The notes under the pieces: generated by a model | What the model saw: the letters and a program-made list of their open reading frames with translations, nothing else | What the model was told of the DNA's origin: nothing | Database searches by the model: none | Part shown: in pieces, positions 9 to 64,000 of the stretch | Numbering within the stretch: the stretch's first letter is position 1 | Layout of the letters: each line of letters begins with the position of its first letter | Program-made: the position numbers and the translations under genes | DNA from: Lytechinus pictus | Lineage: Eukaryota | DNA length: 64,000 nucleotides | Direction: 5' to 3' | Assembly (NCBI RefSeq): GCF_037042905.1 | Contig: NC_087250.1 | Coordinates: 18,726,001 to 18,790,000 of the forward strand

Positions 9-5579
<5,571 letters not shown>

Positions 5580-5635
5580 CTATAATGGGAAAGATCATAG
5601 AATGGTACATCAACCTAGTTTGAGATAACCCCTTC

Positions 5636-6088
5636 CCCTGGGGGGGGGGCAGTCAAATATATTGCTGTACACACGAGTGACCAAGGAATTTCCAAACACC
5701 CCCTCAACGAGTTTTTCTCTGTGTGCAATAATAACCCCCTAAACAAGTTTTTCGCGGGCTTTATTTACACCTTATGGCCCCTAAACAAGTTGTCGCCAAA
5801 ATATGACATCGGGGAAAAAGCTTGGGGGAAAAATACCATACCGGAAACACATTTCGCTAGTCTTTAAAAAAGGTTTTAGGGAAAAAACATACCCTAAATA
5901 CGTCTGACCCCGCGATTGACCATTGACCAGTTTTTTAAAACCAACCTTTAAAAAAAAAATGTTTTTGATACCCTTTACGAGTCCATGCGCCGACCGCGTC
6001 CAAAACTGAGAAACATCCCTTTCAACGGATTTTTTGAGGTCACGCGTGTGTACAGCAATATATTTGACTGTTTTAATTCTCCCCCGGG
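5636..6088. mobile_element. MITE with G-run terminal inverted repeats; related partial copy at about 28905-29165
   Basis: gcagtcaaatatattgctgtacacacg and its reverse complement at 6044-6070. Confidence 0.7.
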
Positions 6089-6657
6089 CCCTCTCCCTAA
6101 CTTCTACATTAAATTACATAAATTATATAACGATTGAAAGTAATAATGGAGATAGGCTTGGACAACGTTTACAAATTTAATATGTTTGTTTTGCGACATA
6201 AAAAATGCACCAACATTTTTTATATTTGGTTGTTTTTTTCAATAAGACGAACTTTTAATTTCACGATTTATTTACACCCTAGAACTTTTGTTTGCCCCAC
6301 ATTGACCATCATTAAACTACCAAAAAAACTTGTATACATGATATATATGGAATTTTTTTAGTATTCCATTAGGATATTTAATTCATGTTAATCAACGGCC
6401 GTCTTGACTTTTGTTTTATTGCATTGATTCATTGGCTTTATCTGTCATGAAAAAGGCCAACGGACAAGTAGGGAGTATGCAAGTACGTCTACAGCCCATG
6501 AAAACCGAGATAACTTAATCCATTGAGGTCCTTACCCAATCACCTGATGACGAAAGTACAATGGTATAGCTACATTCTCTTCATGATCTTTGAAGAGGTA
6601 TGCAACATAGATTCTCAGGCAGGGAAGTGAGATGATCTAACCTCCAACTTTCTTGGC

Positions 6658-6821
6658 GGGTGTTTCATACAGCTGTTCGTAAGTTCAGAGCGACTTTAAG
6701 AACGACTGGTGATCCTTCCTTGTGGTAAATGGTATATTCATTGGCGATGGTTTAGCGCGTAAGGATAACCAGTCGTTCTTAAAGTCTCTCTTAACTTACG
6801 AACAGCTTTATGAAACGGCCC
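6658..6821. mobile_element. Short palindromic MITE
   Basis: tttcatacagctgttcgtaagtt...aacttacgaacagctttatgaaa inverted arms. Confidence 0.7.
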
Positions 6822-6834
6822 GCTGGTCGGATAT

Positions 6835-7178
6835 TAAGGAGCTTTCTATTTGCACGTCGACTAGTGGACTGCGACGAAAGTACGTCATAATAGTCTGCTT
6901 TGTGTTGATGGTATACAAAGTCAGTCGAGCACATGATTGGAAGACACTGAGCATGTGCAAGCCATTCCTGACACGTCAACTTCATGATGACGAACGTGGA
7001 TTTCGCTCAGATCACGCTCGTTCGAAACGTAGTAAACGAGCAATCAAATCCTTGCCCATTGATTGAAGCCCCGTGGTGATATACTCCAGCGGTTCTGTAT
7101 ACCGTAAACACAAAGCAGACTATTATGACGTACTTTCGTCGCAGTCCACTAGTCGACGTGCAAATAGAAAGCTCCTTA
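6835..7178. mobile_element. MITE with near-perfect terminal inverted repeats of about 80 bp
   Basis: aaggagctttctatttgcacgtcgactagtggactgcgacgaaagtacg... mirrored at 7097-7177. Confidence 0.8.
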
Positions 7179-9175
7179 TTACCAATATGATTACTCACGC
7201 GGAAATCCTCATAGAACGTGTCAGTGTGCTTAGGCGTGTTGTCAAAAGTGTGCGTGCGTCTTTACCTTTATATTCTACGGCGAACCCGCTGAGCGTGCCA
7301 TTGTCCATTTTTCTTTCCTACGGGTCAGTGCTCCTGCCATTCAAGACGCCAGCGTGCCCTTTTGCAGCGAAAACGGAAGCGTTCGCTTTTATCTTTTCTT
7401 CTGACATGCTTCGGTTGGCTCTCCGATAATATGTTTTTGCATTAGCGCCCTCTATGTTCACGATATCGGCGTTTTAGGCAAACTATTGAACGCCCGATCT
7501 CTAGTCACTGATCTGAATATCATTGTGTCCTTGTATCGGTGTGCCTAGTCCATTGGGGGTACATTTTCCAAAGTTACGCTTTCACAATTTCTTTTGATAG
7601 TTTTTCGTTTCAGGTTTCAGTAGTGACAAAGTTCAATTAGATTTAGATTTGATTTTTTTTTAAATAGAACGAGTTTTTTTATTTTGAAGAATATACCGTT
7701 AAGACACTGACTTTCTAAAAGTAAATGTTCAGGTGCGGGTAAATTTTTTTTCATCACACTGAGCCCACACAGTCAGCATTGTCGGGTGAAAAGGAAAAAT
7801 ATGGAATTGTCCTTAACTTCTTTGTAAACGAAATGCAAACCCTTTGCAAAAGATGCAATATAAATCATACCTGGGTCCCAAAATGATGGAATTTAAATAT
7901 CTACATTGAAACGCTATACTGTGACAAAAAAATAATAAACTCATAAAATGCAAGCGTTTTTGTGGGAAAATGGACAAGGGCATCGTTGAGATTCATATTT
8001 GAGCTAAACATAGGCCTACATCTAATTTAGCCAAAGTGCACAACAATTTTACTCTTATTATACATTATGTTTAAACATTAACATGCTAGAAACTTATATA
8101 TTCACACATAATACAGATGTCGTGCAAAACAAACGAATAAAATATCATTAATTTTGAACTTTTAAAAATTAATTTGGATGCTCAAGCAGTCATATCGGTC
8201 ATTGTTGATTAAATGCACAATTCTTGAATTTCATTGCCCGAAATTTAGAACAAAAAGTATTTTCGTTACTTTGTAAGACCATTACAAACATCTTTACCTT
8301 CAAACGAAATCAAAAGCACTTAATAATTTAGTATAAAAATTATCAAACTTGACCATGAATTGAGTTGAATGTTTATAAAGGAATTATAGCGTATTTTAAT
8401 GAATCCCATTCTAAACTTTGAATGACCGATGTCTCCGGGGAAAAAGTATCGCGTGAATTAAAATGCAAATTAACACATTTAAGTGACTCTGACATGAAAT
8501 TGGACATGAAAACCTATATTATCTTTTTACCTGGGATCCGTCTTTATTCTCTTATCAATTTCCCCTGTGATCTAGAGTACTAAGTGACCAAGTGTTCTTG
8601 ATTACCATCCAGCAGACACAAAACCGAAGGGGGTCTGGGCTGAAGCCTCCACACTCTTTTTCCTCCAAATAGCGTACAAAACGTAAAAAGTACCATGATT
8701 TTATGCATGGTGATCCCCTTCAAAACCGTTCGGCGGTTGGGGAAGGCTTAATTATCTTTTTCAATTTTTCAGTTCTACTCACAATATTTAATTTTGTCAA
8801 CTTAATTTTAATGGCTTTTATTTTCATCCAACTTCATTTCTTCCTTTGAATTTTTCTAAACCTTTTCTATACTTATTTTTTTAACCTTCACGTTTGACTT
8901 ATACAGTAGTGCATATTGCCGTTGATTTCTTCTTCCTATCAAATATCTGAATTTATCTGCAATATGTGTGTGTCAAATAATTGCAAATTAGATTCCCAGT
9001 GTCTAAGGTAAACATAATTTACCGACGTAAAGTTTGTAATACGAAAGCCTCTTTGGCCTAGTTTCCCTTCCAACTTTGTACTTCACCTCTTAATCGTATA
9101 GCTGTATTCTGTATAGCTTGCAAATTTAAATACTTTTACACACACAAAACAAATCAATAAACGTTCAGGAAATGG

Positions 9176-9343
9176 TAATGCCTCGGTCACATTTGCTCTC
9201 CGGCGGCCGTACGGCGAGTCGAAAACAGCCGTTTTATTCATTTTTATTCAAACCACCTATATTTAGCTGGTACAAAAACTGTTGAAACGACTGTTTTCGA
9301 CTCGCCGTACGGCCGCCGTAGAACAAATGTGACCGAGGTATTA
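9176..9343. mobile_element. Palindromic MITE family (~165 bp); other copies at about 37870-37980, 45975-46100, 53371-53532 and 53828-53973
   Basis: ggtcacatttgctct...cggcgagtcgaaaacagccgttt arms present at five places. Confidence 0.8.
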
Positions 9344-10209
9344 GGCATACTAGATCAAGAAGGATGGAGTGTATGCTGGCGCAGATCCTGCCGAATTAAC
9401 ACAATACAATCTAATAGGCGCCGTATTTATTTTGAACAATAGTTGTTGGCCTCTCAAAAGTATTGTGGTCTATTCTGTGACCTCTACTATTGTAAGCGCT
9501 TTGGGCCTAATGGGAAAAGCGCAGTACAAATAATAAGTAATAATAATAATACTAAAAGAAGTCAGTGGGTCTATATTCTGCACCTGGAGGGTACAGTAGT
9601 GATACCGGGGGGGGGGGGGGGGGTGGCATCCGGCCCTTGCGCCCTCCCTCTTTGAGAGCCATTATCAATTGCTAATGTAAATATGCCATTTTTACACAAG
9701 TGTGCCCCCCTTTGAAACTCACAGCATGTATTTTAATGAGGATATGTCGTTCATGCACAAGTGAGGACCTTCACTTTCGCCTGGTAAACACCCCTTTTCC
9801 AAATATATTTGATTATTAAAATACACGGAGAGATGATAGGCAAAGAATATAACTCGAATGTTAATATTAAGAGTAGACCTATAAGGAGGGAAGTTACATG
9901 GTTAATTAAAAATGTGTTGATAAAATATCAGTGGAACGTTATGTTATAATTTGCTGCGCCAAACAGGTTTTATGTAATATTGCTCTTTATAAAGACAAGT
10001 ATTAAACTACATTAAATGTCGAAATGCTGAGATGTATAATGGAAACCATATTAAAATGCACATTACGAAAAGAACCAAAATCAAGGCTCTAGTATGGGGA
10101 CAAAACGAGAACAAGAAAACTACCCATTTGATGCTCATTTTAATTCCCAGAAAGCCGGACGTTGAAAATGACCTGGGCCAGTGCATTGCTAGCTGTATTT
10201 AGCTGTAGT

Positions 10210-10488
10210 GGAGCGTTGTGGCCCAGTGGATTAGTCTTCGGACTTTGAAACAGAGGGTCGTGGGTTCGAATCCCAGCCATGGCGTAATTTCCTTCAGCAA
10301 GAAATTGATCCACAGTGTGCTGCACTCAACCCAGGTGAGGTAAATGGGTACCGGTAGGAAGTAATTCCTTAAAAAGCTGTGTGCGCTATGAACGCCTAGC
10401 TTAGCCGGGTAATATAGGAGCGCCTTGAGCACCTAACAAGGTGGATATGTGCGCAATATAAATACCCTATATTATTATTATTATTATT
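10210..10488 (+). mobile_element. tRNA-derived SINE
   Basis: A box TGGCCCAGTGG, B box GGTTCGAATCC, body gctgcactcaacccaggtg...aaatgggtacc, LINE-like tail and (ATT)n. Confidence 0.85.
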
Positions 10489-11559
10489 TAATGGGAGAGC
10501 TCGGCTTACCCCATTGTCAAGGTAGATTTAAATTACCCCATTCTTGATTGGGGAGATTACCCTATTGTTGAACATAGAGGAGGTGGTCTGACTGGTGGCG
10601 GATTTCAATAGAAGGATGACCCCTTGATTGGTGGGGGTATTTCAATGGGAGATTACCACTTTGTCAGCGCGGGTGACTGTCTTAATACTTTGATGTGTCC
10701 CCGATGTGTCTTTTAATCGAACACCGTGTTTGCAACTAATCCCAATTAATGAGACTATTTGGCATCAAAATGAAAGTCTAACTTCCATCCTTTTCATAGA
10801 TTTCGTTTGAAAATACTTACAGTGTACGTTTATAAGGTAAACTTGAAATATGAGAAGGCGCTTTATAATATGTAAACCAAATATGATTTGTTCATAAGTA
10901 TCTTTATAACAAATGTTTTCAAAATCGAGTTTCATAGAACAGATGTATAATACTCGATTTAATAACAACCATAATATTTCAAAGTCATCGAGAGGGTAAG
11001 TATCAGACTAAATAATGCAAGCGTGATTTGTTCAGGCGCTGGTAAGATTTTTCTTTTCAATCCCACTGAGCCTGATCTCTTTTTTTTTTCATACAAAAGC
11101 CGGGATAGACATGTGGTTAAATAAGCATTAATTGGATTCGTGCTTTCGGGAAAACAGTATTTATTTACGAGCAAGAACATTGAAGTGTTCAGTGTTGGCA
11201 CCGGTTGGCACCACTGCGATGAAGTTAATTCGAATTGTGTTTTTGAACAGGATCAAAATAGTAGAAGTAAAAACGTTAAGCTTATTATATATATATGTAT
11301 TAATCATTCGGATTTATGCATTATTCTGAACTACAATTGTCTATAATTGAATGATTTATATGTATTCAATCAGTGGCAGATTTTCAGGTGGGGGCACATT
11401 TTCCCTTGAAAACTTTTTAGACAAAAAAGTTGTCACTAAAATAGGGCATTTTGACCCGTTTAAAACGTGACGTTAAAAAATTAAGGTCTTTACTTGTGTT
11501 TGAACAACATATTCATATTACAGATATTTGCTGTGACTCTCAAAAAGTGAGTACACTTG

Positions 11560-12920
11560 CAGGGGCGGAACCATCCTTCGCCAAAGGGGGGGGGGGGTCT
11601 TTTTAACCACATACCCCCGATCAGCCGCTCAAATATGATTTTTGTTTGTTTAAATGAATGTAAAATAATCTCATAAGCCTTATTTAAATAGTGCGAGCGC
11701 GAAGCGCGAGCTATTGTTTAAATTATTATTCCATGTATTTTGTCCTAAAATGGCATTCTGGCAATGCTTGGGATCCTAGACGAGATGAGTAAATTTAATA
11801 TACGCTTTGATCATTCTGATAAAAAAAGATATGTTAACGGCTGATTGCGGTTAGCCATGAAGACGTTACATATTTCAACAGTCAAATAACGCGAGCGCGA
11901 AGCGCGAGCTGAAAATTTTGATCTTTCTACCTGAAGAATTGAAATTCTAAGCAATTTTTGTAATCATGAAAAAGTTGAATATATAACAAAGCAATTGATG
12001 CGAGCGCGAAGCGCAAGCGGAAAATTCGAGATTTGTAGGAAAATTGTGAGTGGATATGGATCACAGTTAAAAAGGAGCTGATATGTTTCATTATTATTAC
12101 TTTGAGTTTGACATACATGTAGGACCGGGACATTCTAAGAACATTATTCCATCGTATGAAAATTATGACTGTCTTCCTATTTCTCTTCCTATCAATGCGC
12201 TAGATGAAACTTGTCGATATTCCATTCTGAAAAAGGAACAATTTAAAGCGCTTTTGTAATAATGAATAAGATGCATGAGTTAATATATTTTTAACAATCA
12301 ATGTGCGCGCATATCGCCAGCCGAAAATTGTTTATAAACTGTCATAAAATGGAGATTTTAAGTAGTTTGTTATAGAATTAATATTTAAATTTTTATAACT
12401 CACCAATCAAAATGCAAGCATGCAGCGCTAGCTGATACGTTTTTACAATCTGACATGAATAGGTATATTTTTATAAGTATATGGAATACAGGAAAATAAT
12501 AGGTACCTGGAAATCAAATTTTGTGAGCGCGCAGCGCAAGCAGAAAATGTTTATATTCAGACAATAAAAAATAAATTTTTACAGAACACTTTTTTAAAAT
12601 GAAAGTTCAATTTCCGAGCTGAAATATGTTATGTATATTGACTTCAAAATTTGATATTTAAAGTTCCATATATGTAAATCACCTAAAAGGTAATGCGAGC
12701 GCAAAGCACGAGCGAAAATTTTATATAATGACATGAAAGATTTTTTTTTATTGTTTTCGAAGTCTTCCCCTCGTCTTATTTATTCACTCGTTTTCCTCCT
12801 CTCATGTTTACCATTTTTTCTCCCGTCTTTTCCCTTTTTGGTCTTTCTTTCCCCCTTTTTTTGCTCCGCCAATAGGGGGAGGAGGGAGGGCGGACCCCTT
12901 GCCCCACCCCTGGATCCAAC
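11560..12920. mobile_element. Non-autonomous DNA element with repeated GCGAGCGCGAAGCGCGAGC motifs; related sequence at about 55630-56150
   Basis: caggggcgga... left end and ...ccctggatcc right end; internal motif repeated many times. Confidence 0.5.
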
Positions 12921-15900
12921 TCTGGAACAATCTACCAAAAAGTATTAAACAAGCAGATTCAAGAGAGAAATTCAAATCCGTGTTAAAACCTTTTTTGTTA
13001 AATATAGCTTTCCCTCCGCATGTGAAGCCCCTCAATTGTTTACAGCCTACTGTGAACTGTACAACTACTTTATTTTTTGGTGAAATTCCTTCTCTCTCTA
13101 TATTTTTTCCTTAGCGTTTAGATAAATGTTTTGTTCTAAGTGGTATACAAATAATGTAAATTAGGGGCGTGCGTTTCCCGATCTCCGTATCGAAATCAAT
13201 ATTAATGAGAGAGCGCAATTTCATTGTTTTCGCTCTAATGGGGGAGGGGAGGGGGAGAGGGTCAGTGTTCAATCAAGCAAAAGACGTAGGCCTATATGTG
13301 CATAAGTCCATGTCATTGGTGTAATGATAAAGATGATGAATCTGATGAATTATGTTTGTCGACGTTATAATAAAGTTAATACAATCAATATGATTCAGGC
13401 GTACACCGCTTTAACTGCATGGTATCATGCATCCAGAAATCGAAATAGCCGATGTATTCAAAACGTACGTAGCCGGGATGGCATGCAGTTCGGATGTTAC
13501 AGTACTCTAACATTAGAATAATCTCGTATTACAAATGTCAATTTTGCGAAAATGCACACAAATTCATAACTTGATAGACTCTGGGGGATGATGTCGATAT
13601 AAAAATCGCATCGACCTCGATATGCAAGCATGTTTGATACTGCGTCGGACTTGACAACCCGCAAAATCTTTTCCAAAATTAGATGAAGGCCATCCATTCT
13701 CATTCTTTTTAATCTATATATAATCTATGTATTTCAGGATCATGATATGAAAACCTTTTATAACAAACATGATAAAGGAAAAACGCGTCTCAAGTTATAC
13801 ATGGTTCATTGCCGCAAAATATATCAATCATCTTCATTTGTTATCATTTAATCATCAACATTATCACTGATATTATTATTCGTATTATCATGTCCGTTAA
13901 TATCACTTCAAAGTTATAATTATCATTATATCATCATCACTGTTATCATCATCACCATCATCATTCATTCAGTATCTATTTCCAATCGTTCTCCAATATC
14001 AATTTTATATTTTATATAATTAAGAATATATGAAAGGTAATAGTAATGATAATGGTGATGCTGGTAATCATGAACATTAGATCCGTTTTGTGAGATAATT
14101 TATGCAATTTTACACGCTAATCGCTACTCGATGATGGTGAAAGAAAGAAGTCGGGACGGTAGTTACTGTATACACGTACTTTATTACACTATAGTACAAA
14201 AGATTCCCCATCGGACGGGCCAACGGTCTTTTGAAATAGGTTCCTCTATTGAAATTATGACAATAATCACGACAGCGGATATGGGGAACTATTCTCTGAG
14301 CGCCTCTCCCATTCATTGTTGTCTGTGGCGAACCCGCTGAGCATGCCATTGTCAATGATTCTCTACACGGGTGAGTGATCTTGCTTTTTCATGATCATAG
14401 GCCTGGGCAATGACTAAGAACAGTTCGATGAGTATCAATGCCAAGTAATCCTGAAAGGTCAATAATGTTAAATTCTCTTGCTGGAGAAGACTATATCATG
14501 GCACTATTTGCTTTTGCTGTAGGCCAGTTGTGTACAACCTGATATAGATGATAAATAATAATTATCTTTCATCTATTTTAGAGTAATGATCTAATGTTAA
14601 TATCATTCTACATAATCACCCTGAAGCTTACGGCCCCATATCTTCACCCGTGAAGTATTGAAATTTGAAGTTTAAATTATTGAACATCATGGCATCCTAG
14701 TATTGTACTGATTTTTAACCATCACTGCAATATAGATAAAAACATAGAGTTAATTCTACTCACATTGATTTTACTTTAGAGCAAATTCAACCCCCCCCCC
14801 TTCCCTTCCCGCTACAAACTTTCTTTCATTCCCTTTCATTATTTCCTTACAAAAAATGATCCTAATTTCAATCACTATGATAATGACATAGATGATTTGC
14901 TGTTGACGATAATGATGCTGCTGATGATAGTGATGATAATCAAAACTGATGATGATGATGGTGGTGGTGGTGGCGGTGATGGTGAATGTGGTAGTGGTAG
15001 CCTTGGTGATTATGACAAATAAAAATACTGAAAGTTACGAAAGTCACACATTCAATGAATAATACCTAGAAACATACTTTTAGATGAAATAAAAATCACA
15101 CACAATTTGTGCAACTTGTAAGCCTCCCATTTAGTTTATTCTTATTTTTTTAACTGAATTGTGTCCGCTTATATTCCTTCTTGATGATGATTTAAAGCTT
15201 TTAAGTTTATAATTATATTGGTAAATCCCGGTCAGAAAAGTTCATGTCACCATTCCATTCCTGAGTACTATATAATATCAAGGAGATGATATCTCCTTGA
15301 TTATATGAGCATGGCCCTAAAGTGATTGTGATGTGATAGGTATGAAATCAAATGTGTTTTATTGGAAAATTTAGCCCTTTTCACACATTCTTTTTTTCCA
15401 GCGATTTGGCGACCGATCAAAATGTCTGTGTATTTTGAATTGGAAACCATCTATCGGGACAGACTTCAAGATGTAGGTCTGAATAACATTGCAACATACT
15501 TCGTTTGGTGCTCAAAAGGTTATTTCTAAAATAGAACATCATCGAGAAATGGTGCTTGATTCATGACGTCTGAAGAAAAAAATCCGATGACCACTGCACT
15601 TTTGTAAACATTTTAAAATGCTTGTTAATACTCGACAAAATTAAAAAGACAAAATTACGTATTATTTACCAAAGTTAATCGAAGAGTTTCAACATGACAA
15701 TTAGAACAATAAATTAAACACTACACATGCAGAGAACGATCGAGATGAGAATAAAAACTTGATCAGATGATGTAATATACTGATAAGCTTTTTCTTTATC
15801 TTCCTTTTTCCTCTTCGTATTCTTCCTCATCTCTCATTATTATTCTTATCCCTTTTTACTGCTCCCCCATTCTACATGTACGTCTGCTTCTCCTTGGTAA

Positions 15901-17516
15901 TTCTTCTTCTCCTCCTCCTTCTCCCACCTCATCGATATGTGAAGATAAAATTATAATGAAATAATAGAAATGTTTATGAAGATAATACTTATAATAGAGA
16001 AATGAAGATGATTGCGATTGTAACAGCGGTGATGACGATATCGATAATTATGAGAGGTCATAAACCATGTACAGCACAAAGTATCAGACGCAATTTCAAA
16101 TATGATTACATGACGATTTCGATACGAAATATTAATCATAAATCTAGATCTGGTACATTAATATACACTTATTTTTGTAGAATAATGAAATCGCCGCTCA
16201 ATATCGATAATTCTGATGATGACTAAAACAGAAAAGCATACGTGGGACAGTGTATTATGATATTGCCTCGAAAAATACCTGACACTTGATGGAATTCCGT
16301 GCTTATACCGCTCATTTCTCAGCACGAATTTCTTTCACAGGGCTATTTGGCAAATATTTTTCATTTATACAAACAAACACTCCGTTGGTAAATTTCATTG
16401 GATTCTGATCGAACTAATTTTCAGATCGTTACCACATTTGGTATTCATCTTCAATTCCGAACATTACGTTTAATACATTAAACCAATTAAATTAAGTTAC
16501 ATACTTTAGTCTGTTATAAGTTGTTTATATGTACTCTCATACCCCGAGAGGGGATCGATGGGGTGAATAAAATGTAAATCTAAATCAGGGGCGGATCCAG
16601 CCTCCGCCACTGCATGTCTTCCCCTCTGTTCCCCTTTCACTCTTTCCCTTTTTCCCCTTTATTTCTCCCCCCATCGTCCACCAGATCTCTCTTCTTCTTT
16701 CCCCTTATTTTCTGTCTCTATCCATTTCCATATTCCAATTTGTCCCCCCTCTCCCGTTGATTCGATCCTAAATTTCTTCCCCTCTCAAATTTCCAATTTT
16801 TTTTTCTCTTTCAACTGTTTTTCCTCCATATTTTTTCACCCTTCCTCTTCCTCCATCCCAATGTTTTTTTTCTTATTTTTTCTCTGTTTCCCCTTCCTTT
16901 TCTCTCCCTATCCTTAGTTTTCTTCTTCCTCGTTTCATCTTCTCTTTTGGTCCCGCTTCTTTAAAACAAGGAGATAAAGAAAATTAAGAGACTATAATTA
17001 TGTTATCCTGGGGAAATGGTTGCCCGTCCAAAAATTGAACAAACTATTTTTAACAGTTTCTAATAAATCTTTGATCTATCTATGCCTTATAGTGCCAAGC
17101 TGTTCCGGTCATATTCATTTCATCTTGCCATTTCCTTCTCTTTATTTTATTATTACTTTTTTTTTGGGGGGGGGGGGGGACTCCCGACACTTATTTCAGA
17201 TGCGAGTAATAATAAATATTCCAAGTTGACGTGAATTGTACGAATGGCTTGGGAATCTTATTTTCCCACCTAAAACATCATAAATTGACCCTCTTCCAAT
17301 GCGAAAAAGGAGGTTTTCATGGTTATTGCAGCAAATTCGAAAGATCAGTAACGATTTATGACACGTGCGTGATTTTTGATTAAGCTACTGTGGCTTTATG
17401 AATGCACCCGAACTTCCATTATAGATGCCAACCATAGTTCAGAACAGTGACCCGAACTCTCCGATCCGACAATAAATATGAAGGCACGCCTTTGTTTTGG
17501 TCGTAGAGGGAGCTAT

Positions 17517-17833
17517 TTAGAATAGATTCTCCGGTTTTTCGACAGAAATTAAGACTTGCAGGAAAGACGAACAAAAGAACGGTGGCATCAATGGGCCTTT
17601 GATGGCGGCCGTTCCTTTGAAGAGAAGGGAACGTTGGGCAGGAAAGCCGAAGCGAAAACCCGGATGCAGTAAAGACGGTATAGAACGGTGCATGGACTTT
17701 TGACAAGCTCCCTTATTGCTGTCAACAAAGGTGGCGAACTTTGAGACAGGTATGACGCGACGATCCTTTAATGATTCCTCTTCTGCAATTCGTGTAGGTT
17801 TGTGACCCTCATCCAAACGAGTAGTTGGTAGGT
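17517..17833 (-). CDS. Exon 22: juxtamembrane/wedge-proximal segment, 3' boundary uncertain
   Basis: Strong polypyrimidine acceptor (cttttccattccaaccccttccaccag), phase 1. DLPTTRLDEG...RRVIPVSKFATFVDSNK resembles the RPTP pre-wedge helix. No good donor follows; the frame stays open to TAA at 17517. Confidence 0.6.
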
Positions 17834-20800
17834 CTGGTGGAAGGGGTTGGAATGGAAAAGACAACGTGTTGAAGATCGACCCAAACGCGTTATTACGAAG
17901 TCGGCAGTAACTACCGCATTGAAATGAATTGCTTAAAATGGGCGTTCACACACACTACATATTATATGTTGGTTTACGGTGGTATTCTCCTGAAGCTTAA
18001 TGCATTCAGAGTACTTTATTCCAGAGCCTGGTAAATTAATTATGGTGTTTACTGCTACGTGAGGCAAGCATAATTCCTAATAATTACATCCTCTGATTGC
18101 ATCCCAACCTCGGGGACCAAACCGCCGTCTAAACGGGCAATATGTGATCGTGTTTAACTCCTTTGTCGCAAGAATGTACAGAGGACATGAAAACCGTATT
18201 AAAAAGCTTTAGGTGAAAAAATACAAATGTATAACTTCTGGTCAGGATATTTCATTTCAACATCATGTTAAATGTGTAACTACAGGGAATATAGGTCTGT
18301 CTCAATTGTCTTTGCATTATTGAGCCGAGGACCGATAGATACACCGTTAAAACGGCAAAAGAATCTATGTCTCGATATATCGATTTTCAAAATAACTTTC
18401 CACAAATTTTGCTAAACAAAATAACCCACTCTGGCGTTTAACATACCAGTGGAAATGCCTTCGATGAATCCTTCGTTTTTGTAAGTCACAGGTTTGGAAA
18501 CTTCTTCAGGTCGATTTCTAAATCAAAGTTAAAAATGTTACACGTAGACTACGAAAAATGACAAAAAATAATAAATGTATTACAAGCAGTCACGGTAAAC
18601 AAAGATGATGATGATGATGATGAAGTGCAACTCAACCCTAAGCCGATGTGAATAAAAGGAGACCGTTAATACGGGCACACGTTTCCAGGAAAAAAAATAT
18701 TATACATGTAGTGCAAATTTCACAAGACGAACATCCTGGCTACATGCAAATAAAAGATATTCCAACTATTTCCTCATTAGAAATTTGAAAAAGTATGGTT
18801 TAACCTAAGAAAAATTACCTTACTGTAAAATACGGTTTTGATGAAATTCCAAATGTTATGTTTCTTTAGCTATCCAGTTTTATTCAAACCAACTCTTGTC
18901 GGAGTGGATTTCCCTCTTCAAAAACGTAATCTGCCGAACAACAATTCCCTCTACTTCTCACGCCACTACTTATACTATCACTGACACTATTATCTACCAC
19001 ACTGTTTAAGGTCTGAATAGGTCATCATAATCATCTAAAGATGAGCCCAATATTCTGTACACAAGAACTCCATCTTATTTCGAGAAGGGGGGGGGGGGGC
19101 ACTGGATATCTTCTTTTCAAGAACCATGATGATGATAGGTGTGTGATGAGGAAGAGAAACCGTCGAGACATATCCAGTTACCTTCTTCTTTTGGTTATTA
19201 TGATCACCAGGCCAGCAATCAACAGAAGGATGATTATTCCACCTATAGAGCCACCAACGGCTGGACCAGTAGAAGAGCCAGAAGGCGGTTCTATTGAAGA
19301 TAAGGGTGTAAAAATTAAAAGATATACATCGTTTCAATGCTCGATTGTTTGTGTTTGATCTTGTTATGGATGCGCCGTGGCTCCATTTCCCCTCGAACTT
19401 TAAGATTTTCATTCCCGCTAGCAAAAACCATGCATGGCCCGAATTCACAAAGGTGGTTTTGAAAACCCACGGTTGAGTCCATAGATTATGCAGATTTCCT
19501 GTATAAATTACGCTTAATTTAGTGCGTATCGGGCGCTTGTATAAAAAAATGTCCAATGCCGATGCGCGTTTTCGTCACAGTGCGCCAAATTGACGCCTGT
19601 TACCCTGGTTAAATACGCTATTTTATTCATGAGTCCACGTTTGAAGAGTGAGCTCTTTTTTTCAAAACAGTAGACTCATGAATAATATAGCGTGGATCAC
19701 CACGGCAACAGGCGTCAATTTGGCGCACTCTCACAAAAGCGCGCATAAGCATTGGGCATTTTTTAATATACGCGGTAAAATAAGCGCAATTTATACAGGA
19801 AATCTGCATAAACCATGGACTCAACCGTGGGTTTTCAAAACCACCTTTGTGAATTCGGGCCATTGAGTTACAAAAAACAAATCCTGTAAAGTGACCAGTC
19901 GTACCCTGCAGTGAAAGTGGATAAAGAAATCGATTAATATTCTCTAGATTCGAATCTTTAAAGTGATTGTTTAACATTGATTTGACTTTAAGAAAATCTG
20001 AGCTAGAAGGTCACACTTGTCAACTCTGTCTGTGATATGTTACAAAAATGAAGCCCAGAAAAAATTACGTTCGAAGATAATTATTAAGTGCTTCAAAAAT
20101 TGAAATATAAAGTGACCGGAAACACCACCTTAATTTCATCCCATACATGTATGTGTACTATTTAGGCGTCTATTAGACGCCTATTTACGAAATCGGGGTT
20201 TGCCTTGTAGATTTAGCTTTTCATTCTCAATAATGGTTGTTTTCAGGGTTTATTAGTTCTAATACATGTATTTATACAAATGTTTAATCTTGGTTTAAGA
20301 ATTTTTTAAATCGGCTGCTCACAAAGTTAAACAATACCTTTAAGTCAAGTGTGTATAGTGGTCGATTGGCCACTTTGTATTTTAACTGCTACATACTAGA
20401 ATGCATGCCATTATACCATGGGAGTACAATAATACCGTTGTCCGATATAGGACTGTTGGCCTTAGAACTTGTCTACATAATAAAATAAGACAATTTATAA
20501 AGTTCAAACAAGTGATTTATTAAAGCAAAAATAAATGAAAACTTTTTGATAATAAAAATAAACAATATAAGACAAACTATCGCTGCCAAAATTTGAACAA
20601 ACCTGACAAACAAGGAGAAAGTAAATATTATTAAATGTTGTAAAAACTGGCAATATAACATTTTTTTTATCAATGGGTGATGTCATAGTGATGTATCTCC
20701 GTGTAGTTAGTGGAATAAAACTCCACTTTGTATAGCACACTTTTCTCATCATGTTTTTTTTAATTAAGGATTACATTCAAAAAATTAATATAAACTCAAG

Positions 20801-23736: not shown

Positions 23737-25396
23737 CACTGTTGGTCATAAAGGTGGAATATTTTTTTTCACCAAATTTTCACAGCGTAATTATTACAAC
23801 ATGATTTGAATATGGCATCTATGGTGCATGATAACCACTTTACTTTATTATTCTGCCTTTTACACACGTTTGACAGTGATATTTTACAAGTTTATGTCCT
23901 AAGCGATGGATGTCATGAGCATAAAACAACAATGACGACAATATACAGTACATTAAAGGATCATGATGTATTTATTTTTAATCTCTCTCAGTTTTCCAGA
24001 TGACTTCTTTTTTTGTGATTTAATGGACAAATTTGCATCAAACTTGAGACATTGTTCTTACTCAGTCACTAGTATCGGGTATGTCCACCCCTGGCACGAA
24101 CCAGCGCATGCAGACGTCGTGGCATGCTGTCCACTAGCTTGTTGATGACGTCAACAGGCATAGCGTCCCATTCTTCCCTCAGAGCATCTGCCAACTCCTG
24201 CAGATTTTGAGGAATGACCTCTCTGTCGTTGATGGCTCGGCCTAGGGCATCCCATGCATGCTCTATGGGGTTCATATCCGGCGAACAAGCTGGCCATGGC
24301 AACTGTACGACGCCCTCTGCCTCCAGGAATTCCCTTACTGCAGCGGCCCTGTGCGGTCTAGCGTTGTCATCCTGCAGTCGGAAATTGTGCCCATACACTC
24401 GTCTTGCATATGGACGACAGTGGAACTCCAAGATCTCGCTGTATGCAGCGGCGTTGGCGTTTCCGTCCGGAACCACCAGTGGCGTTTTCCCTCCATAATG
24501 GATGCCGGCCCATATCATCACTGAGCCGCCTCCGCCTTGAGTCGTCTCGTGGATACATTCATCGCTGAGGTTTTCCCCGGCTAATCGATGAACACGTTGT
24601 CTCCCATCCTTCCGGTCAAGGATGAATTGGCTCTCGTCCGTGAAGACTACATGTTGCCAATGTCCTGGATGAAGCCTTCTGTGCTCCCTAGCCCAAAGAA
24701 GACGAGCTACTCTGTGGCGAACAGACAGGCGTGGACATTTGGTCAACCCTCGTGCTCGGTAACCATGTTTGAGCAATCTGCGATTAACGGTTGACCGGGA
24801 AACGTTGATTCCATGATATCTCTTCCACAAACGACGAAGACGGCTCTTGGGCAATTTCCGGTTTCTGCGGCTGAAATTCAACAATTGGCGATCATCTCTT
24901 CTTGTGGTCAATCTGGGACGTCCTGGAGATTTCCGTGGCCGCACATTCCCCGCCTCACGTTGACGTTTCAGGATCTTAGAGACTGCACTCTGTGATATCC
25001 CTAGGACTTCTGCGATAACAGTCTGCTTGTAGCCCTCCTGTCGCAGTGCTACCACTCTCTCGCGTGTTGCTGTTGCCGTTGGACTAGGCATAGTCCAGGG
25101 AACGTCTCTACCGATTTTTATTCCAAACGGTACAAGGAACTCGAAAAAATGCAACCTTCTTATACACAGTGCTAAATCAGGGAAAGGGACATATTATCAT
25201 ATGCATAGGCTTTTATAGTCTACAACAAAAGAATTTATTACGTAATCCAAATTTCTCATGATATAATGTCACCTGTGTAATGGGGAAACATTATGTAATC
25301 ACTCAATTACCATTTTGTCTACGTGTAGCCTTTCAAATACCAACAAAACTGTCGATTTTTATTCAAAAATATTTTATTCCACCTTTATGACCAACA

Positions 25397-45901: not shown

Positions 45902-47087
45902 TATATAGTCATGCTCAAAATAAATAAATTACATTGGCATATATAGACTAGCCGTCCTCATGGCGCAAAACGGTCTACGTACGGTGAGTCGAAAACAGCC
46001 GTTTCAACATTTACAGTAAGGATGGTTTGAATAAAATTAGATGAAACGGTTGTTTTCGCCTCGCCGTTCTGCGGACGTAGGGAAAATGTAACCGAGATTA
46101 CTTACCCTGAAATGCTATTGTTTATCCATGTGTATATGCCGTCCCCGTCAAGGTCATTCAGGCCAATCCAGTAGTTATATTCATTGCCCATCTCTTCTAT
46201 CGTAAACGTGTTCAGAAACGCCTTTTTAAACGACCAATCGAGATTAGTGATATGAAAATACAAATGAAAAATACTAATGGATATTCATGTTAGGTTATCG
46301 GACTTGATAGAAACGACGATTGCTACTATAGACTGATGTGCTATACCTCGTTCCCACTTTACGAACACTATGATTGGCCCTTCGGAACCTATTGCCAACA
46401 AAATTGAACTATGTGATTTTTTTTCTATGATCATTACGATTTCCACAACTGATCTGATACGATCTAATACGAGCTGATACGTTCACCGCGATAACTCCAA
46501 TAGTAAGACCATCGTTTCAATCGTGGCACGAATCGCGAAAGAGGGAACTATAATATTATAAATCTCAGGTTACTTTTGTTACCGCCCCTGGATCTCCAGG
46601 TAGAAGTAACCTCCGTGACGTGTACAGAGAATTCCACAGTAACGTTCTAATAGCACCCCAATGCGTAACTGATAGGATTATGTTGACTGCAGTTGTATAA
46701 ATTGATGCCAGTAACCTTTGATTAATTATATGAGTGACAGAAGCTGTAGCAAAATGTTAAAATTGTAACAATCTGTATTTGTAATAGAACATCAATGAAC
46801 AAATATTTCGGCAATTGACTCCCCCCCCCCCCCCGTCAGTGTTGCTCATATGTGTCAAAATCAAAATGTTTGAACGAGCGAAATTTGCTTATCTTTGGAG
46901 AAAGAGGTTGATATTAACCTTTAATGGCCGTAAATATTAGATAGTAATCACTTAAACCTATATTTTGTACTCCTGATTTAATGACAATTTCACTAAGTGA
47001 GTCAGAAATACAAATTAAATCAATAAGTGATTGTCTGTTAGGCGTAACTCTCGTGGGTTCAGATATAACCTGTGTCATCTGCTTGGT

Positions 47088-47130
<43 letters not shown>

Positions 47131-50100
47131 CTTATTTTGACAGATTAGTATCAGTTAACATGTTAAAGTTAAAATCCCCAAGGATGATAACATTGCATGA
47201 CTTTCCAAATACTTTCTCGAGATTTTGTTCTAAACTCTCAGAGAATTCTAAGTGACTGTCAGGTTTCCTATACAGTATACTAACGAATTAGAGTGAGCTG
47301 CTATTAGCACGCAGTAATTCGAGCCACAATATTTCAAATGTTACAGGTTCAAGATCTGTTCTTCTTACGTAGAAAGTATTTTCAGATATATAACACCCTA
47401 CTCCTCCTCCAAGGGTGCCCCTATACCTTCTCTCAAACTTACATTCTTTAACGGAAAACAAACTATCAGAATATTCTTCTGTCAACCATGTTTCAGACAA
47501 ACTGAATATATCAAATTTATACACCAGCAACCTTATTTACCAGACTCCTTACATTGAGATGAGCAAGTTTGATGCCTTTGTGTTTCATTTGAAAGTGTTA
47601 TTCGACTCATCTTTAATACAAGATAGTACTTGTACTCCCTGACATCTCACTGCATTTTATTTTGATTTCATCATTTTCTTTTACTTCACCTACATTATTC
47701 CAAAAGGGTAGCTGTTGCATCAAGCACATATGACAGAGCCAGTTTTCAAAGAGTACATCTGAATCATAGGGTTTTTTTTCAGGACCTATCCACAATGTAT
47801 ATGTAACCTTGGAAAACATCCAGTACATAATAATGCCTTTTGGGTTTTTTAACGACCTACTGCAAATAGAACATGTGTATTTAACCATTATCAAAAACTG
47901 TGATAAGACTTGCGTGGAATATTGATGTCTCTATTCGTATAAGTCTCAATGTGGTGCAATATAAAATGTATGTGCAAGAGAGTGCACCACAATAAATGAA
48001 CGTTATTTCAAATTGGTAATAATTGAAACATTATAAATAATAACTATATAATCCTTGAGCAATGATCAAACAAGATGCCAAACAATTTAAAGTTGGAACA
48101 ATTACAATATCTCACAGTAATTAATAATAATAATAGGGTATAGCAACCCTGTGAATTTAAATTACCTACTAGATCTAAATCACGATCTAAAACAGTAACT
48201 AGAATATTTATAGAATGTATAGATCTAGACTATGTAAATACATATCCGTATAAAATAGATTTCATTAATGGTAGAGACTTGGTCTAAATATACTCTACTC
48301 TCTACATCTATTAAAACATAAGTAATCGACATTTGTTTCATTCGATGCTATGAATACTGAATTAGTGATGGTCTTGCTTATTATTGGCATAACCCATACT
48401 TTTATCCCATGTTTTACGTAGTTAATTTTGGTAAGGAAGCAGTTTGTAATATTCAAGTGAGAAAACTTGAAAAAATATATTTCCTAATCAAAGTACGCAT
48501 GCAGTCTAGTTACATTCTGATTTACACAGTGTGCCCACTGTGTAAATGATGATCTGATGATAATCCTGAACAGAGCTTTAACTGAACGAGCCTGGTGCTG
48601 AATGATTCCCCTTATACAGTGAGTATCAAAAAAAAGTTTACACTTTGAAAAAGCCCTGGGAATTAAAAAATATACAAGATGTGGGTAATTTTGTTCACAT
48701 ATAATCTTGGGTTTGGGTCTTATCTATCCAATGAAAGTAAAAGTTTTGTCAGAATGTTACACTTGAGTGAGCACTGTCCATTTTTGTAAAGCTCGCAGAA
48801 ATCTGTTTGCGCAGAAATGCTCGTTTTCACGCTGTGTCAAGGGGAAAGGGCGAAATCAAACTTACCCTGCGAAACAATGCTCGTATATTTCTCTTGCACT
48901 TTTAGTCAATTGAAATAAAACGGATACATTCAAGCATTTTGTAACAATTTTGCCACCCAAATTTAAATTTCAGTAATTTTAGTCAGCACAACCTCTACCA
49001 TTTTTGTGCCAGCTGGATCTGAGGACATAACTAAATCTGAACAAAAGTTTATATCAGACATCTTCAGCATTTTTTCACTAAGTTTTTATCATTGAAAGTG
49101 GGTTTACATTTCATTTTTCATTTAATACTTGTTTCTCCACACTTTTCCCAAGCTTGGCAATGATTAACAAAATGAAAATCAGGCTTAAGCCATTCCATGT
49201 AAATCACAGCTCAGTGTAAAAGCAAATGGTGTGTGGGGGAGTGGGGTGGGGTAAAATTCAATTTTCGAAGTGTTTTGGGCAAGGAAACAAGTCAAAAAAG
49301 GTAAAAGATATCTTCAAATCAATTTTACTAGCTAAATTCCACGTGTTCTTCATGATTAAGGTCTACTTTTATTCGCATAACTATCTCAAAGTTCTGCGCA
49401 AATCATTTTTCACTAACTTTTCAAAAGTAAGTGGCGCTCACTCAAGCGGAAATATTTTTCGACAGTTATATCGTCATTTGCTTAAATGGATCTGTACCAA
49501 TGTTAAAATGTGAAAAAATCTTCAGGATATTACAAATGTATAACTTTACAGGATTTTTTCAAAGTGTAAACTTTTTTTGATACGCACTGTATACGTTATG
49601 ATTGAAAGAAAAAGCTTTGAAATTCTTTTAATTGTTTTCATGCGCCTTAACATTTCAAAAATAAAAGCGAAGTCCCATACATCATATACATATCGTGGAT
49701 GGGTTGTTGCTTTCGGGAGGTAACCAGCGGGGGCGGCCGACTTCTATGCATGATATTCAGTTATGAAATATCTGCTGACATATATTATTATTATATTATA
49801 TTATATTATTATTGTTATTAAATTTTGTTTTTTTAAACCAGTTTTGGTCTTATCCCTTTCCAAAGTGGTAAAGTAGTATTAATAGCATTCCACTTGACTC
49901 GACTATATCATAAGACTTTCAAAGAGTAATATAATAAACTTTACCACCTACGTTTTGCTCATTGGAAGTAATAACTGGTAAATCTCCACCCAGTGATCGA
50001 CAATATTCCATAGCATCATTGTATGTCCTAGGAGTAGTAAACACGAGATGATATTGATGATTCTCAAACTCTAACCATCCTGGCGTATTGCATATCTGTC

Positions 50101-54800: not shown

Positions 54801-56571
54801 TGACGTCCCATCTGCTGATCTTTCACACGGGATGTAGACATGACGAGATCCGAGATCTTTTCCCTAAGAGATGTTCACATGATGAGATGATTATATGAAC
54901 ATCTGGGTGGCACTTTTAGCTTCCATATACAAAGTAATGATGTAGATCTTCTATGTTCAATAACTGATTTGAATAAAATGGTGGATTATGGTATGATCTA
55001 GAAAGTTAGAGGAAGAAATTGTCCTCACGGGTCTTTTTTTAATTTTAAATTTGGATTCGAGTCGTATCTGGGAGGCATTTCCCTAAGCTAAGATTCAATT
55101 ATACATTATATGGCGTAGAAAATTTAACCAAGGTGTGTTTCTTTCGTTAATGATCGTTAAATTATATCACCAAATATTCAGGGTCAATCATATTTTGGTG
55201 ATATTTTGTCTCCTACCGAAATCTGTTGACAAGGAAAATAAAGCTCACGCGGGAAATTTTCCCCTGCAATATTTTGACAAGAAAAAAAAAAGTCTACCGC
55301 TAAACCGACTGCTAGAGCCTATAGTCTATTGACTATAGGTTCTACCAGTCGGTAAATTGCTGTACAATTACTGCCCAGTCGGCAAAAATTCAGATCTGAA
55401 AAGAACAGAGTACAAGACTTCAAGACTAGTTCAGCAATGTAATCTGCATATTCATGGTGACAGAATACAAGTTTGCAGTTGGCAAAAACATGTCCCAAGT
55501 TAATGGTAGGCCTACATTTTTTTTTTTGCCGTAGATTTTTGTTAATTTTATGGAGTCAGAATGTGCCTGGGTTGGGGGTGTGTGGATGTTAATAGTGTTT
55601 GATTGTATTCCTAAAAATTGAAACAGTTTTGCAGGGCGGTGAAACCGGGGTAAGCAAGGGGGGCACTAGCCCCCAAATTTCCTCGTAGGAAATATTCCAT
55701 TTTCAAAATGGAAAGTGCCTTTTTTCAAAATGAAATGTGACCTTTCTCAAAATGAAATACCCTTTTCGAAGGAAAACATATTAATCACAACACCTTTGGC
55801 TCGCGCTTCGCGCTCGCATCAATTATTGTTTAGTAAGGTACTCATTTTGTTCTTGGTTACAAAAAGTGCTTAGAATGTCCAGTTTTCAGCTTGGAATATC
55901 ACAAACTTTCAGCTCACGCTTCGCGCTGGTATTATCCTATTGGTGAGATATGTATCATTTTAATCATAATCAGTCACTAAATGCAGTAATTGTACCTCTT
56001 CTGGTCAGTATATCAAAAATTACAGCTCGCGCTTCGCACCAGTTCTTTAGTGAGAATAAGATTCACAACTGTGCAAGTGCCTTTTTATTGGACTTTCCCC
56101 CCCCAAAAAAAAAAAAAAAAAAAAAAATACTTCCGCCGCCCCTGTCAGTTTGACCATTGTCAAAAAGAATCAACCTGAGCAACCTCAGGAGTGGAACCCG
56201 ATCAAACTTCAATGTAAAGTTTGTGAAGCCATATTGTCTAATGACTACCTGCAAGTTAGCAACTAAGTCACAGTAGCCTTTCTATTTTGATCCAAATGTG
56301 TATTTGTTACATTGCACACCAAATCCTTGTAGAATCCACCTCAAAGTATTCACCAAATGCCACGAATCCAATTCTGAAAATTCAAAATATTTTAGGGGGC
56401 ACTTCCTACATCGGACTCCCCCTTGTGCGCGCAAGCTCACACGTTGGCGCTGTCGCGCCAAATTTAGTCGGGATATTTAGCTCCCCCCCCCCACACACAC
56501 ACAATGCTTCTGACTACGGCCCTGGGTTGAATTACACTCGATTAATTTTCTGTCAACCTTCCAAGTTCATC

Positions 56572-62500: not shown

Positions 62501-64000
62501 CGTCATCAAAATTGCGCCTAAACTGAAAATTTCATTTTTTCAAAAACGACGTCATCAAATTTATGCAAATTTGATCATAACTCCGTGAATATTGATCATT
62601 TTTCGCCCAGATTTCGATATGTTGTAGTTTAGAATGTCCTCTTTCTCGTCAGTAACCATGAATTTTCATTTTGAAAAACGCATCATGGTGTAAAATTGCG
62701 ATGAAAAGAGGCATGTCATTTTTCCTCATTTTACGTGTAATCTCTATGGGACATGACTTTTTCTCAAAACTAGATTCTACATTCCTCTATATCGTGAGCT
62801 ATATCTCAATGTTTTCTTGCTAGTTATCCCTGAGCTTTTGGTATGATGTAGCTGAGATTCTAAGCTTTCGGAAGTGTGCCCTCCATTTTTCGATCAGATG
62901 CCAGGATCATGCCCGTTTTTCGCTTGCAAAATTGGATTTGTAATTCTCAAATTTGCTCACGTGTAATCTCTATGGGAACGTGTAAATCTCTATGGGGAAT
63001 ATCGTGGCTCAATGGATAACGCACTTGACTTGAGTTCTCGGGGGCGCAGGTTCGAGTCCTGGGGGTGAACAAGATGATTTTTTTTTTCATTTTTTTTTCT
63101 TTTTACCACCTCGTACATGATCCTTTATGATAATTAAAAGGTATGAAAGTTAGAATTTAGCAAGATTAAACAGATTATAATTACTTTTTTCATATCACAT
63201 GTATTTTCATATATCAAAGAGACCCTTTTCACAGTGCTTTATCATCTCCCGTCTTTCACAAGTATTCCATCCATAATGAACATTCCGTTGTCATCATGAA
63301 GATCATATAGATCTGCTTGAACATGGTAATAGTGATCATGATGGCGAGAATAAGGACAGACCACCTAATTCGTCCGCATGACGAATTAAAATCTAGTTTA
63401 TTTTTATTTCTTCCGTACACTTTTTTGTACACACGTTCATTCGAAATTGACATGATCAATTTCCTTCAAATTTCTGTCAGTCATCAAGCCATATGATTTC
63501 TAGTAAAATTAACTTTTTCAAGGTTATTAGGTCATCGTGACGTCATCCAGGCGCCATTTTGTAAAAATCAGGTCATTATCATATCTCGATAACGAGTCAT
63601 CAAAAATCAACTATATTTGGTATACATCAACTTCAGGTCAACGATCAACTAAAAATGTCATCAAATTCCGCGCGCGCACCTCGACGCGCACGTACGCGCG
63701 CATTAAAATTTTTAAATGCTCAAATTCGTTTCAAATTAATTTTCCATACGTTTCAGGCCATTTCAAGCATTTTGCAAAAAAACGCGCGCAAGCACATGCG
63801 CGCGCGTTTTCGCGCGTAATTGCATCTTTCAACATAGAATCGCCAATTTTTTTTATATCAATGCACCGATAATATAATTCTGAACAATTTGATACCTTGA
63901 TCAACCTTCTACGACAAGTAATAACGAAATTATCACCCGTTATACTTTGCAGCATGTGTGCGCGCGAGCTCTCACTACAGGCCACATATGGGCAAAAACA
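56572..64000 (+). mobile_element. Array of ~1.7-kb non-autonomous Helentron-like (HINE/DINE-1-like) elements
   Basis: Orphan head 56572-56651; units 56652-58330, 58348-60058, 60059-61683, 61686-63397 and 63398 to the window end. Heads have the hairpin ATTAGGTGGTCTGTC-AAC-GACAGATCACCT and a (TTAT)-type microsatellite. Tails have the inverted copy GACAGACCACCTAAT, stem-loop AATTCGTC-CGCAT-GACGAATT and terminal CTAGT. Confidence 0.75.
57936..58007 (+). pseudogene. tRNA-like (Arg-type) Pol III cassette inside the array unit; copies at about 59660-59731, 61284-61355 and 62998-63069
   Basis: A box TGGCTCAATGG, B box GGTTCGAGTCC, downstream T run; acceptor and anticodon stems do not pair. Confidence 0.65.

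Follow-up and report, generated by a model that had tools for sequence, protein, structure and literature searches.

Lytechinus receptor phosphatases that lack the D1 domain, and a copy split in exon 22 by a likely PIF/Harbinger-type transposon

Introduction

A tandem receptor protein tyrosine phosphatase (RPTP) is recognised by a signal peptide, an ectodomain and a single transmembrane (TM) helix, followed by a membrane-proximal catalytic domain, D1, with the motifs KNRY, WPD and HCSAGxGR, and by a membrane-distal domain, D2. The gene considered here, LOC129272155 of the echinoid Lytechinus pictus, lies on the minus strand of a 64,000-nucleotide stretch of DNA (NCBI RefSeq assembly GCF_037042905.1, contig NC_087250.1, positions 18,726,001 to 18,790,000), hereafter the window, from whose first letter all positions are counted. 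The gene encodes the extracellular and membrane parts, its signal peptide and TM helix having been judged by eye, and D2 is present as well. D1 is not found. What, then, became of D1, and does the locus still make a receptor phosphatase?

Two separate events were found, which an initial annotation of this DNA had not told apart, and a displaced exon tail had been overlooked. It is quite probable that the gene belongs to a Lytechinus clade of lectin/Tie-like receptor phosphatases which lack D1 and retain a D2 predicted to be inactive, and that 10,480 bp of inserted DNA, likely a non-autonomous PIF/Harbinger-type transposon, interrupt exon 22 of this copy.

D1 is absent and D2 is intact

The initial annotation had reported D1 as missing between the juxtamembrane exon and D2, and had proposed a tblastn search of positions 5580-17833 with D1 sequences. 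The search, on both strands at word size 2, took as queries the D1 regions of close family members, nine stretches in all, two of them partial, including an 82-residue stretch of P0010. No D1 exon was detected in the interval, the best E value being 0.90, and the claim is thus borne out. The same settings with the paralogue P0002 recover all five D2 exons at E values of 1e-6 to 1e-24. In the insert described below, 150 of the 184 stop-to-stop open reading frames (ORFs) of at least 33 residues were scanned, and none of the 150 matches the PTP family.

The D2 exons, all on the minus strand, occupy 5480-5579 (starting TLARICPDPP.., with KSRN in place of KNRY), 4054-4127, 2402-2530, 1416-1544 and 9-163 (with WPK in place of WPD, the last letters encoding VHCM). 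The first begins in phase 0, as had been noted, and the series contains neither a stop nor a frameshift. RefSeq treats the exons at 2530-9 as a separate gene, XP_063956640/1, which continues past the window with an intact HCMNGVGRT loop, a Q-loop and a tail bearing several tyrosines. The present account explains why RefSeq splits the locus into this gene and XP_063957173. Upstream of D2 exon 1 lies the true intron over the D1 deletion (5580-7198, minus strand), 1,619 nt long and devoid of any D1 remnant. It holds MITE-like sequences (MITE, miniature inverted-repeat transposable element) at 5650-6070, 6662-6816 and 6832-7181, with arms of 33, 56 and 103 nt.

A probable mobile element divides exon 22

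On the minus strand, the 5' part of exon 22 (17833-17716) is followed by TAA (17715-17713), 10,480 bp of other sequence (17712-7233), a second TAA (7232-7230), a 31-nt exon tail (which completes ..KHTDTFYEDFR) and a GT donor. The 5' part, placed by exon mapping, encodes the D1-derived pre-wedge helix alpha1', as judged from the predicted model of paralogue P0173. The tail and donor occupy 7197-7229, and the exon ends in phase 0. Residues 1086-1107 of P0002 match 7249-7184 in tblastn, and 29/30 letters of the tail agree with loose ends in runs X1 and X12. Exon 22 had been described as running into unrelated sequence without a good donor. The sequence it meets is now delimited as an insert bounded by a TAA duplication and inverted ends; the missing 3' end (..HTDTFYEDFR followed by GT, 7229-7199) lies within the interval that had been scanned. 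In silico removal of the insert and one TAA leaves the cytoplasmic exons, from TM to D2 exon 5, in a single uninterrupted reading frame, and all the true splice sites carry AG/GT.

The 17-nt terminal inverted repeats, at 17696-17712 (minus strand) and 7233-7249 (plus strand), agree at 13/17 positions with an 11-nt perfect core. Besides the two ends, only 4 of 127,966 window positions reach at least 13/17 against the left terminal 17-mer, and the match at the right end lies exactly beside the second TAA and the tail of the exon, which is in frame. A 3-bp TWA target-site duplication and short inverted ends are marks of the PIF/Harbinger superfamily (bioRxiv 10.64898/2026.05.26.728016; PMC9710019), and both are found here. 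The DDE transposase and Myb/MADF genes of autonomous elements are not: among the 150 ORFs scanned there is no match to a transposase (DDE_Tnp_4) or to MADF, and the five weak Pfam matches, all below cut-off (the best Baculo_P15, E 9e-4), are taken as chance. Because neither gene was found, the insert is termed non-autonomous and Harbinger-like, and it is likely, on the evidence of its ends, a non-autonomous PIF/Harbinger-type transposon. With the non-autonomous elements of this superfamily it shares the TWA duplication, the short terminal inverted repeats and the disruption of an exon, and probably also several insertion sites, to judge by its left end. It differs in its length of 10.5 kb without a detected transposase or MADF gene, its imperfect ends and its nested repeats. 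An internal copy of its right subterminal sequence, 83% identical (14327-14384 against 7279-7337), is perhaps the terminus of an older or nested element. As an event, the insertion is nothing unusual.

Read-through from exon 22 adds 64 insert-derived codons and a stop (17517-17711, minus strand). The initial annotation had ended the unspliced frame at a TAA, and its reading holds: the stop lies at 17519-17517 and the 1297-residue product is identical to XP_063957173.1. The minus-strand AATAAA noted at 17141-17146 is also present, at 17151-17146 after correction; this candidate signal is the first of the 15 that the insert has on its minus strand.

Contigs from public runs bear on both the element and the gene. 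None of the runs listed is recorded as RNA; runs X1, X4, X8 and X12, from organisms coded A and B, were treated as RNA-like because their cover falls on exons and their joints skip introns. At 17713-17716 the left end of the element leaves into differing flanks in four contigs of X4, five of X8 and two of X12, with exits at 17715 among them, so the left end appears to be multi-copy in both organisms. An X1 contig crosses the left junction with no differences over 17687-17834, at a depth of 23. Near-identical X1 contigs also cover much of the insert at depths of 14-30, and may partly stem from other copies of the element. In organism B, an 814-nt spliced contig of X12 follows exon 22 with four differences in 123 nt (97%), and passes directly into the exon tail (29/30 letters) with no insert; judged by this match, it is an uninterrupted close gene in that organism. 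X1 likewise holds an uninterrupted contig of paralogue type. The joint between 7229 and 17713 is absent among the joints listed, which tells neither for nor against its use. Missing cover on the flanking exons in runs X2 and X5 was given no weight.

Two other proteins were considered and rejected as counterparts of the locus. P0044, an earlier model bearing this LOC identifier, is not its uninterrupted version: where its principal exons match the window, identity is no more than ~50-86%, which makes it a paralogue; P0043 was rejected as an orthologue on the same ground of low exon identity.

Distribution and origin of the D2-only layout

A direct join of the pre-wedge helix to D2 (with a D2 start of TLARICP or NLANVCP type) is found in 11 of the 42 proteins examined. 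They belong to L. pictus LOC129282660, -679, -680, -684 and -686 and L. variegatus LOC121405881, and the join is also present in L. variegatus LOC121424220 and L. pictus XP_054765361 and XP_054765360 (P0043, P0044, P0173). L. variegatus LOC121424198 (P0157) also has a single PTP domain, while Lv_P0015, a fragment that does not reach the join, is excluded from the D1-less count. Besides the present locus, the single-domain layout thus occurs in at least six L. pictus and three L. variegatus models. Both D1 and D2 are retained in L. pictus LOC129282688, in L. variegatus XP_041452902 and in the Strongylocentrotus purpuratus members used in the trees.

The solitary domain is 56-68% identical to the D2s of three relatives, against 29-34% to two D1s. 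A 65-row tree made by a quick method groups the 11 single-domain rows into a single clade within the D2s, with a Shimodaira-Hasegawa-like approximate likelihood ratio (SH-aLRT) support of 100. A careful 26-row tree, from which all D1 rows, the non-echinoid rows, Lp_LOC686, Sp_P0060, Lv_LOC4198 and the Diadema setosum row were left out, unites ten single-domain rows with a support of 100/100 on a stem of 0.23. The sister group is uncertain, a grouping with three S. purpuratus genes being supported at 87/84. The family members found in S. purpuratus are only two-domain or fragmentary. Outside Lytechinus, no single-domain relative occurs among the best 150 representatives: 146 of these are new, 145 of them have at least two PTP domains and one is a repetitive fragment. 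This survey is a weak one, since clustering at 50% identity conceals close relatives and the ranking is biased towards proteins with two domains. The simplest reading of these comparisons is that D1 was lost once, before the split of L. pictus and L. variegatus, and that duplication followed.

Since the loss of D1 is common to both Lytechinus species, a recent deletion of D1 at this locus is not supported. The initial annotation had offered a recent deletion, rearrangement or misassembly as one explanation; the recent event is instead the insertion with its target-site duplication. It had also offered a receptor spliced straight to a D2-only tail. This appears correct for the ancestral state of the gene and for its paralogues, and very probably does not hold for the insertion-bearing allele. 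A third proposal, a phosphatase-less receptor of 1297 residues, describes the predicted product of that allele and the RefSeq model, which arises as a by-product of the insertion.

Two further observations concern the wider family. Members without any PTP domain but with the same ectodomain, P0006 (L. variegatus LOC121406246) and P0023 (L. pictus LOC129282662), fall into one 90% cluster across both species. In S. purpuratus, P0039 (LOC100889872) has a D1 with WPL replacing WPD, a possible independent inactivation of D1.

The retained D2 is predicted to be inactive

KSRS or KSRN replaces KNRY, and WPN, WPK or WPT replaces WPD, in all 11 single-domain rows, so that both the phosphotyrosine loop and the general acid are altered, as in pseudophosphatases. 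The P-loop HC[MI][ND]GVGRT, with its Cys and Arg, and the Q-loop Gln are kept in 9/9 rows that reach them and in the D2 model of the locus itself (P0174). Because KSRY, with its Tyr, persists in the D2s of the nearest two-domain relatives, loss of this Tyr marks the single-domain clade. In human PTPs, loss of the WPD Asp or the KNRY Tyr accompanies inactivity (PMC2638020), and the motifs thus predict an inactive D2.

The fold is probably retained. An AlphaFold model of P0173, from a 42-row alignment, has a mean predicted local distance difference test score (pLDDT) of 73 and a predicted template modelling score (pTM) of 0.76. Helices 47-58 and 62-73 span the join at a pLDDT of ~77-90, and the best matches in the PDB are PTP domains, with TM-scores of 0.74-0.78 by target and a best Foldseek E value of 3.9e-20. 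Constraint on D2 is suggested by the orthologue pair P0002/P0011, in which D2 is 95% identical, against 92% for the ectodomain and 85-88% for the TM, juxtamembrane and tail parts; in the two-domain pair the values are 95% for D1 and 94% for D2.

Gene architecture and neighbouring features

The FN3 exon of the window matches XP_063957173.1 (P0001) at 100%, and the 22 exons of this model map to 51817-17520. Exons 1-21 (18447-51817, minus strand) encode the signal peptide, three C-type lectin domains, a Tie-like Ig/EGF region, EGF-like repeats, an FN3 domain with basic RKRR/RKKR sites, the TM helix and the juxtamembrane part. Pfam recognises Lectin_C three times, with a weak fn3 match, and the Tie-like label follows from the resemblance of Tie2/TEK to residues 246-398 of paralogue P0011, in the Ig/EGF region (E 5e-35). 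The TM exon (20; 19182-19290) has AG/GT ends and spliced joints in runs X1, X4, X8 and X12, and the juxtamembrane exon (21; 18447-18517) ends in phase 1. The identifier LOC129272155 is shared by two different paralogues, P0001 and P0044, in two annotation versions. Several paralogues stand on one 15.8-Mb contig, and this, with their neighbouring LOC numbers, points to a cluster in L. pictus.

A juxtamembrane exon of ~93 nt appears to be missing from this copy between exons 21 and 22 (17835-18446), where a search of the intron with a 17-nt pattern gave no match; the frame is kept. The exon is present in the organism-B contig and in paralogues, and the matching exon of several paralogues carries a YENL motif. 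In the intron before the FN3 exon, an open Tc1/mariner-type transposase frame of 340 codons (24072-25091, minus strand; DDE_3 E 4e-15, HTH_Tnp_Tc3_2 E 1e-12) represents a second apparently young element in the gene. Another intron holds a degraded endonuclease-like fragment of a long interspersed nuclear element (46900-47900, minus strand), with one weak Exo_endo_phos_2 match at E 7e-4. From 56570 to 64000 runs a tandem array of four to five copies of a ~1.6-1.7 kb unit, mostly 90-97% identical, which continues off the window end.

Proposed history and alternative explanations

The comparison of paralogues indicates that a deletion took out all D1 exons between two phase-0 boundaries and fused the pre-wedge exon of D1 to D2 exon 1 without a change of frame. 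This would have happened once, before L. pictus and L. variegatus separated, with several gene duplications afterwards. The join is predicted to fall inside helix alpha2', so that a complete single PTP fold would be kept. With the lectin/Tie-like ectodomain as their ligand-binding part, the intact members would signal without catalysis, and D2, together with the tyrosine-bearing tail, may form a scaffold for docking and so rival or dampen the active paralogue that has both D1 and D2. The precedents are the binding of Afadin by the D2 of PTPRK (PMC9640194), the proposal that PTPRU competes for the substrates of active paralogues (bioRxiv 10.1101/805119) and the inhibitory intermolecular contact supported by the D2 of PTP-epsilon (PMC6016963). 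By this analogy, we regard a scaffold or competitor role of the D2-only members as about evenly balanced against all else. In the present copy the insertion contributes 64 codons of foreign origin, followed by a stop, so that the allele would make at most a tail-less membrane protein of 1297 residues. D2 seems unreachable from it by simple routes, because read-through stops and skipping of exon 22 shifts the frame. The insertion-bearing allele is most likely a recently broken copy.

Several points weigh against this account. The X1 contig across the junction extends no more than 26 letters into the insert, short of the 31-letter rule for bridging, and X1 need not be independent of the animal that was assembled. 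Among the contigs examined, no empty allele of the locus was seen in organism A. The splice from exon 22 to D2 (7199 to 5579) is absent among the joints listed, beyond which 261 more exist, and this is evidence in neither direction. The superfamily was assigned from the ends, since no transposase or MADF gene was found. The splice and D1-lessness of the paralogues come from RefSeq protein models instead of genomic DNA, and some L. pictus rows may be one locus in two assembly versions. In the P0173 model the loop region 95-118 has a pLDDT below 50, and the rmsd to the PDB matches is ~6 Å. The orthologue pair P0044/P0043 shows no excess conservation of D2 (92%, against 94% for the ectodomain). 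Finally, the scaffold or competitor step is drawn from analogy.

A misassembly might be suspected of having deleted D1 or brought in foreign DNA, as no contig spans the whole stretch among the contigs listed. This is exceedingly unlikely. The window contains no N, the left junction is crossed by the X1 contig, relatives share the loss of D1, and an error would not produce a duplicated 3-bp target together with inverted ends precisely where the exon is split. The dependence on predicted proteins leaves room for the view that the D1-less paralogue models are artefacts of annotation or splice skipping, D1 having been lost at this locus only. We consider this highly improbable, given that the same join recurs in two species and on several contigs, that the models form one clade with a common loss of the KNRY Tyr, and that the 1,619-nt intron of this locus bears no trace of D1. 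The intact D2 exons and exon-22 donor would also permit the insert to be spliced out via cryptic sites, with a D2-bearing protein still made from the allele. No such joint occurs among those listed, retention of the insert brings the stop at 17517, and a transcript that skips exon 22 would set phase 1 against phase 0, a frameshift, so that this too is very unlikely.

Two further alternatives concern function. The 1297-residue product could be a selected decoy receptor and not a broken copy: RefSeq models it, an X1 contig crosses the junction and others cover much of the insert at the depths given above, and P0006/P0023 show that both species have a natural PTP-less member. Yet the downstream D2 exons are intact, as fits a recent hit, the close gene of organism B is uninterrupted, the new tail is element sequence, and the contigs covering the insert may derive from other copies. 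We therefore find a functional decoy doubtful. For the D2-only members, the conserved P-loop and Q-loop Gln could mean an active enzyme of altered, lipid or redox-linked, specificity in place of a dead scaffold; changed catalytic loops can alter specificity instead of abolishing activity (bioRxiv 10.1101/805119). The missing acid at the WPD position, the lost KNRY Tyr and the replaced Ser-Ala of the P-loop speak against it, and the Cys is commonly kept in inactive D2s. Residual or altered catalysis thus seems unlikely, and the remaining probability beyond the scaffold falls to slow decay or other roles.

Relation to known receptors

The nearest known proteins are the two-domain echinoid lectin/Tie-like RPTPs, namely L. 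pictus LOC129282688, L. variegatus XP_041452902 and S. purpuratus LOC115924937, LOC100891371 and LOC100889872. They share the ectodomain layout (~69-73% identical beyond the lectin domains in the two compared), the pre-wedge exon and a D2 related to the solitary domain. Their D1 is kept, with KNRY, WP[DL] and HCSAGVGR, and their D2 has the Tyr of KSRY, whereas the D2-only clade has neither D1 past the pre-wedge helix nor that Tyr. They are probably the 'PTPRLec' group of Byrum et al. 2006, an urchin phosphatase survey in which lectin-bearing receptor PTPs of S. purpuratus were reportedly named. That survey lay outside the reach of the literature searched, in which the term PTPRLec is absent and no description of a D2-only receptor clade was found. 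The proteins of the family stand in RefSeq as 'uncharacterized'. The clade is the substantive finding here, and appears undescribed in the literature searched.

IA-2 and IA-2beta (PTPRN, PTPRN2) resemble it as receptors with an inactive PTP domain; their ectodomain is SEA-like, unlike the lectin/Tie-like one. They have a single PTP domain, which is not known to be the remnant D2 of a tandem arrangement. Closer in proposed function is PTPRU, a receptor PTP without catalysis for which competition with active paralogues via its D2 is proposed (bioRxiv 10.1101/805119). PTPRU keeps a D1 inactivated by substitutions, while in the Lytechinus clade D1 is deleted and the ectodomain is lectin/Tie-like. 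The available portions of PMC10815196, PMC5336234 and PMC7854572 do not mention the present family.

Significance

For annotation, the locus flags an apparently young, 10.5-kb non-coding mobile element. For the biology of RPTPs, what D2 does continues to be described as a conundrum, with proposals focused on how it regulates the D1 of the same chain (PMC6016963). A clade without D1, in which D2 has stayed in frame across several duplications in two species, and with an active two-domain relative extant, makes a D1-independent function of D2 directly testable in an urchin used in the laboratory. We tentatively suggest that Lytechinus possesses a graded family of paired receptors, with active (D1+D2), D2-only and tail-less members of related ectodomains, in which the D2-only proteins may act as ligand-controlled, non-catalytic antagonists or scaffolds. 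If so, they would provide a natural case of an RPTP D2 that works without a D1 in the same chain.

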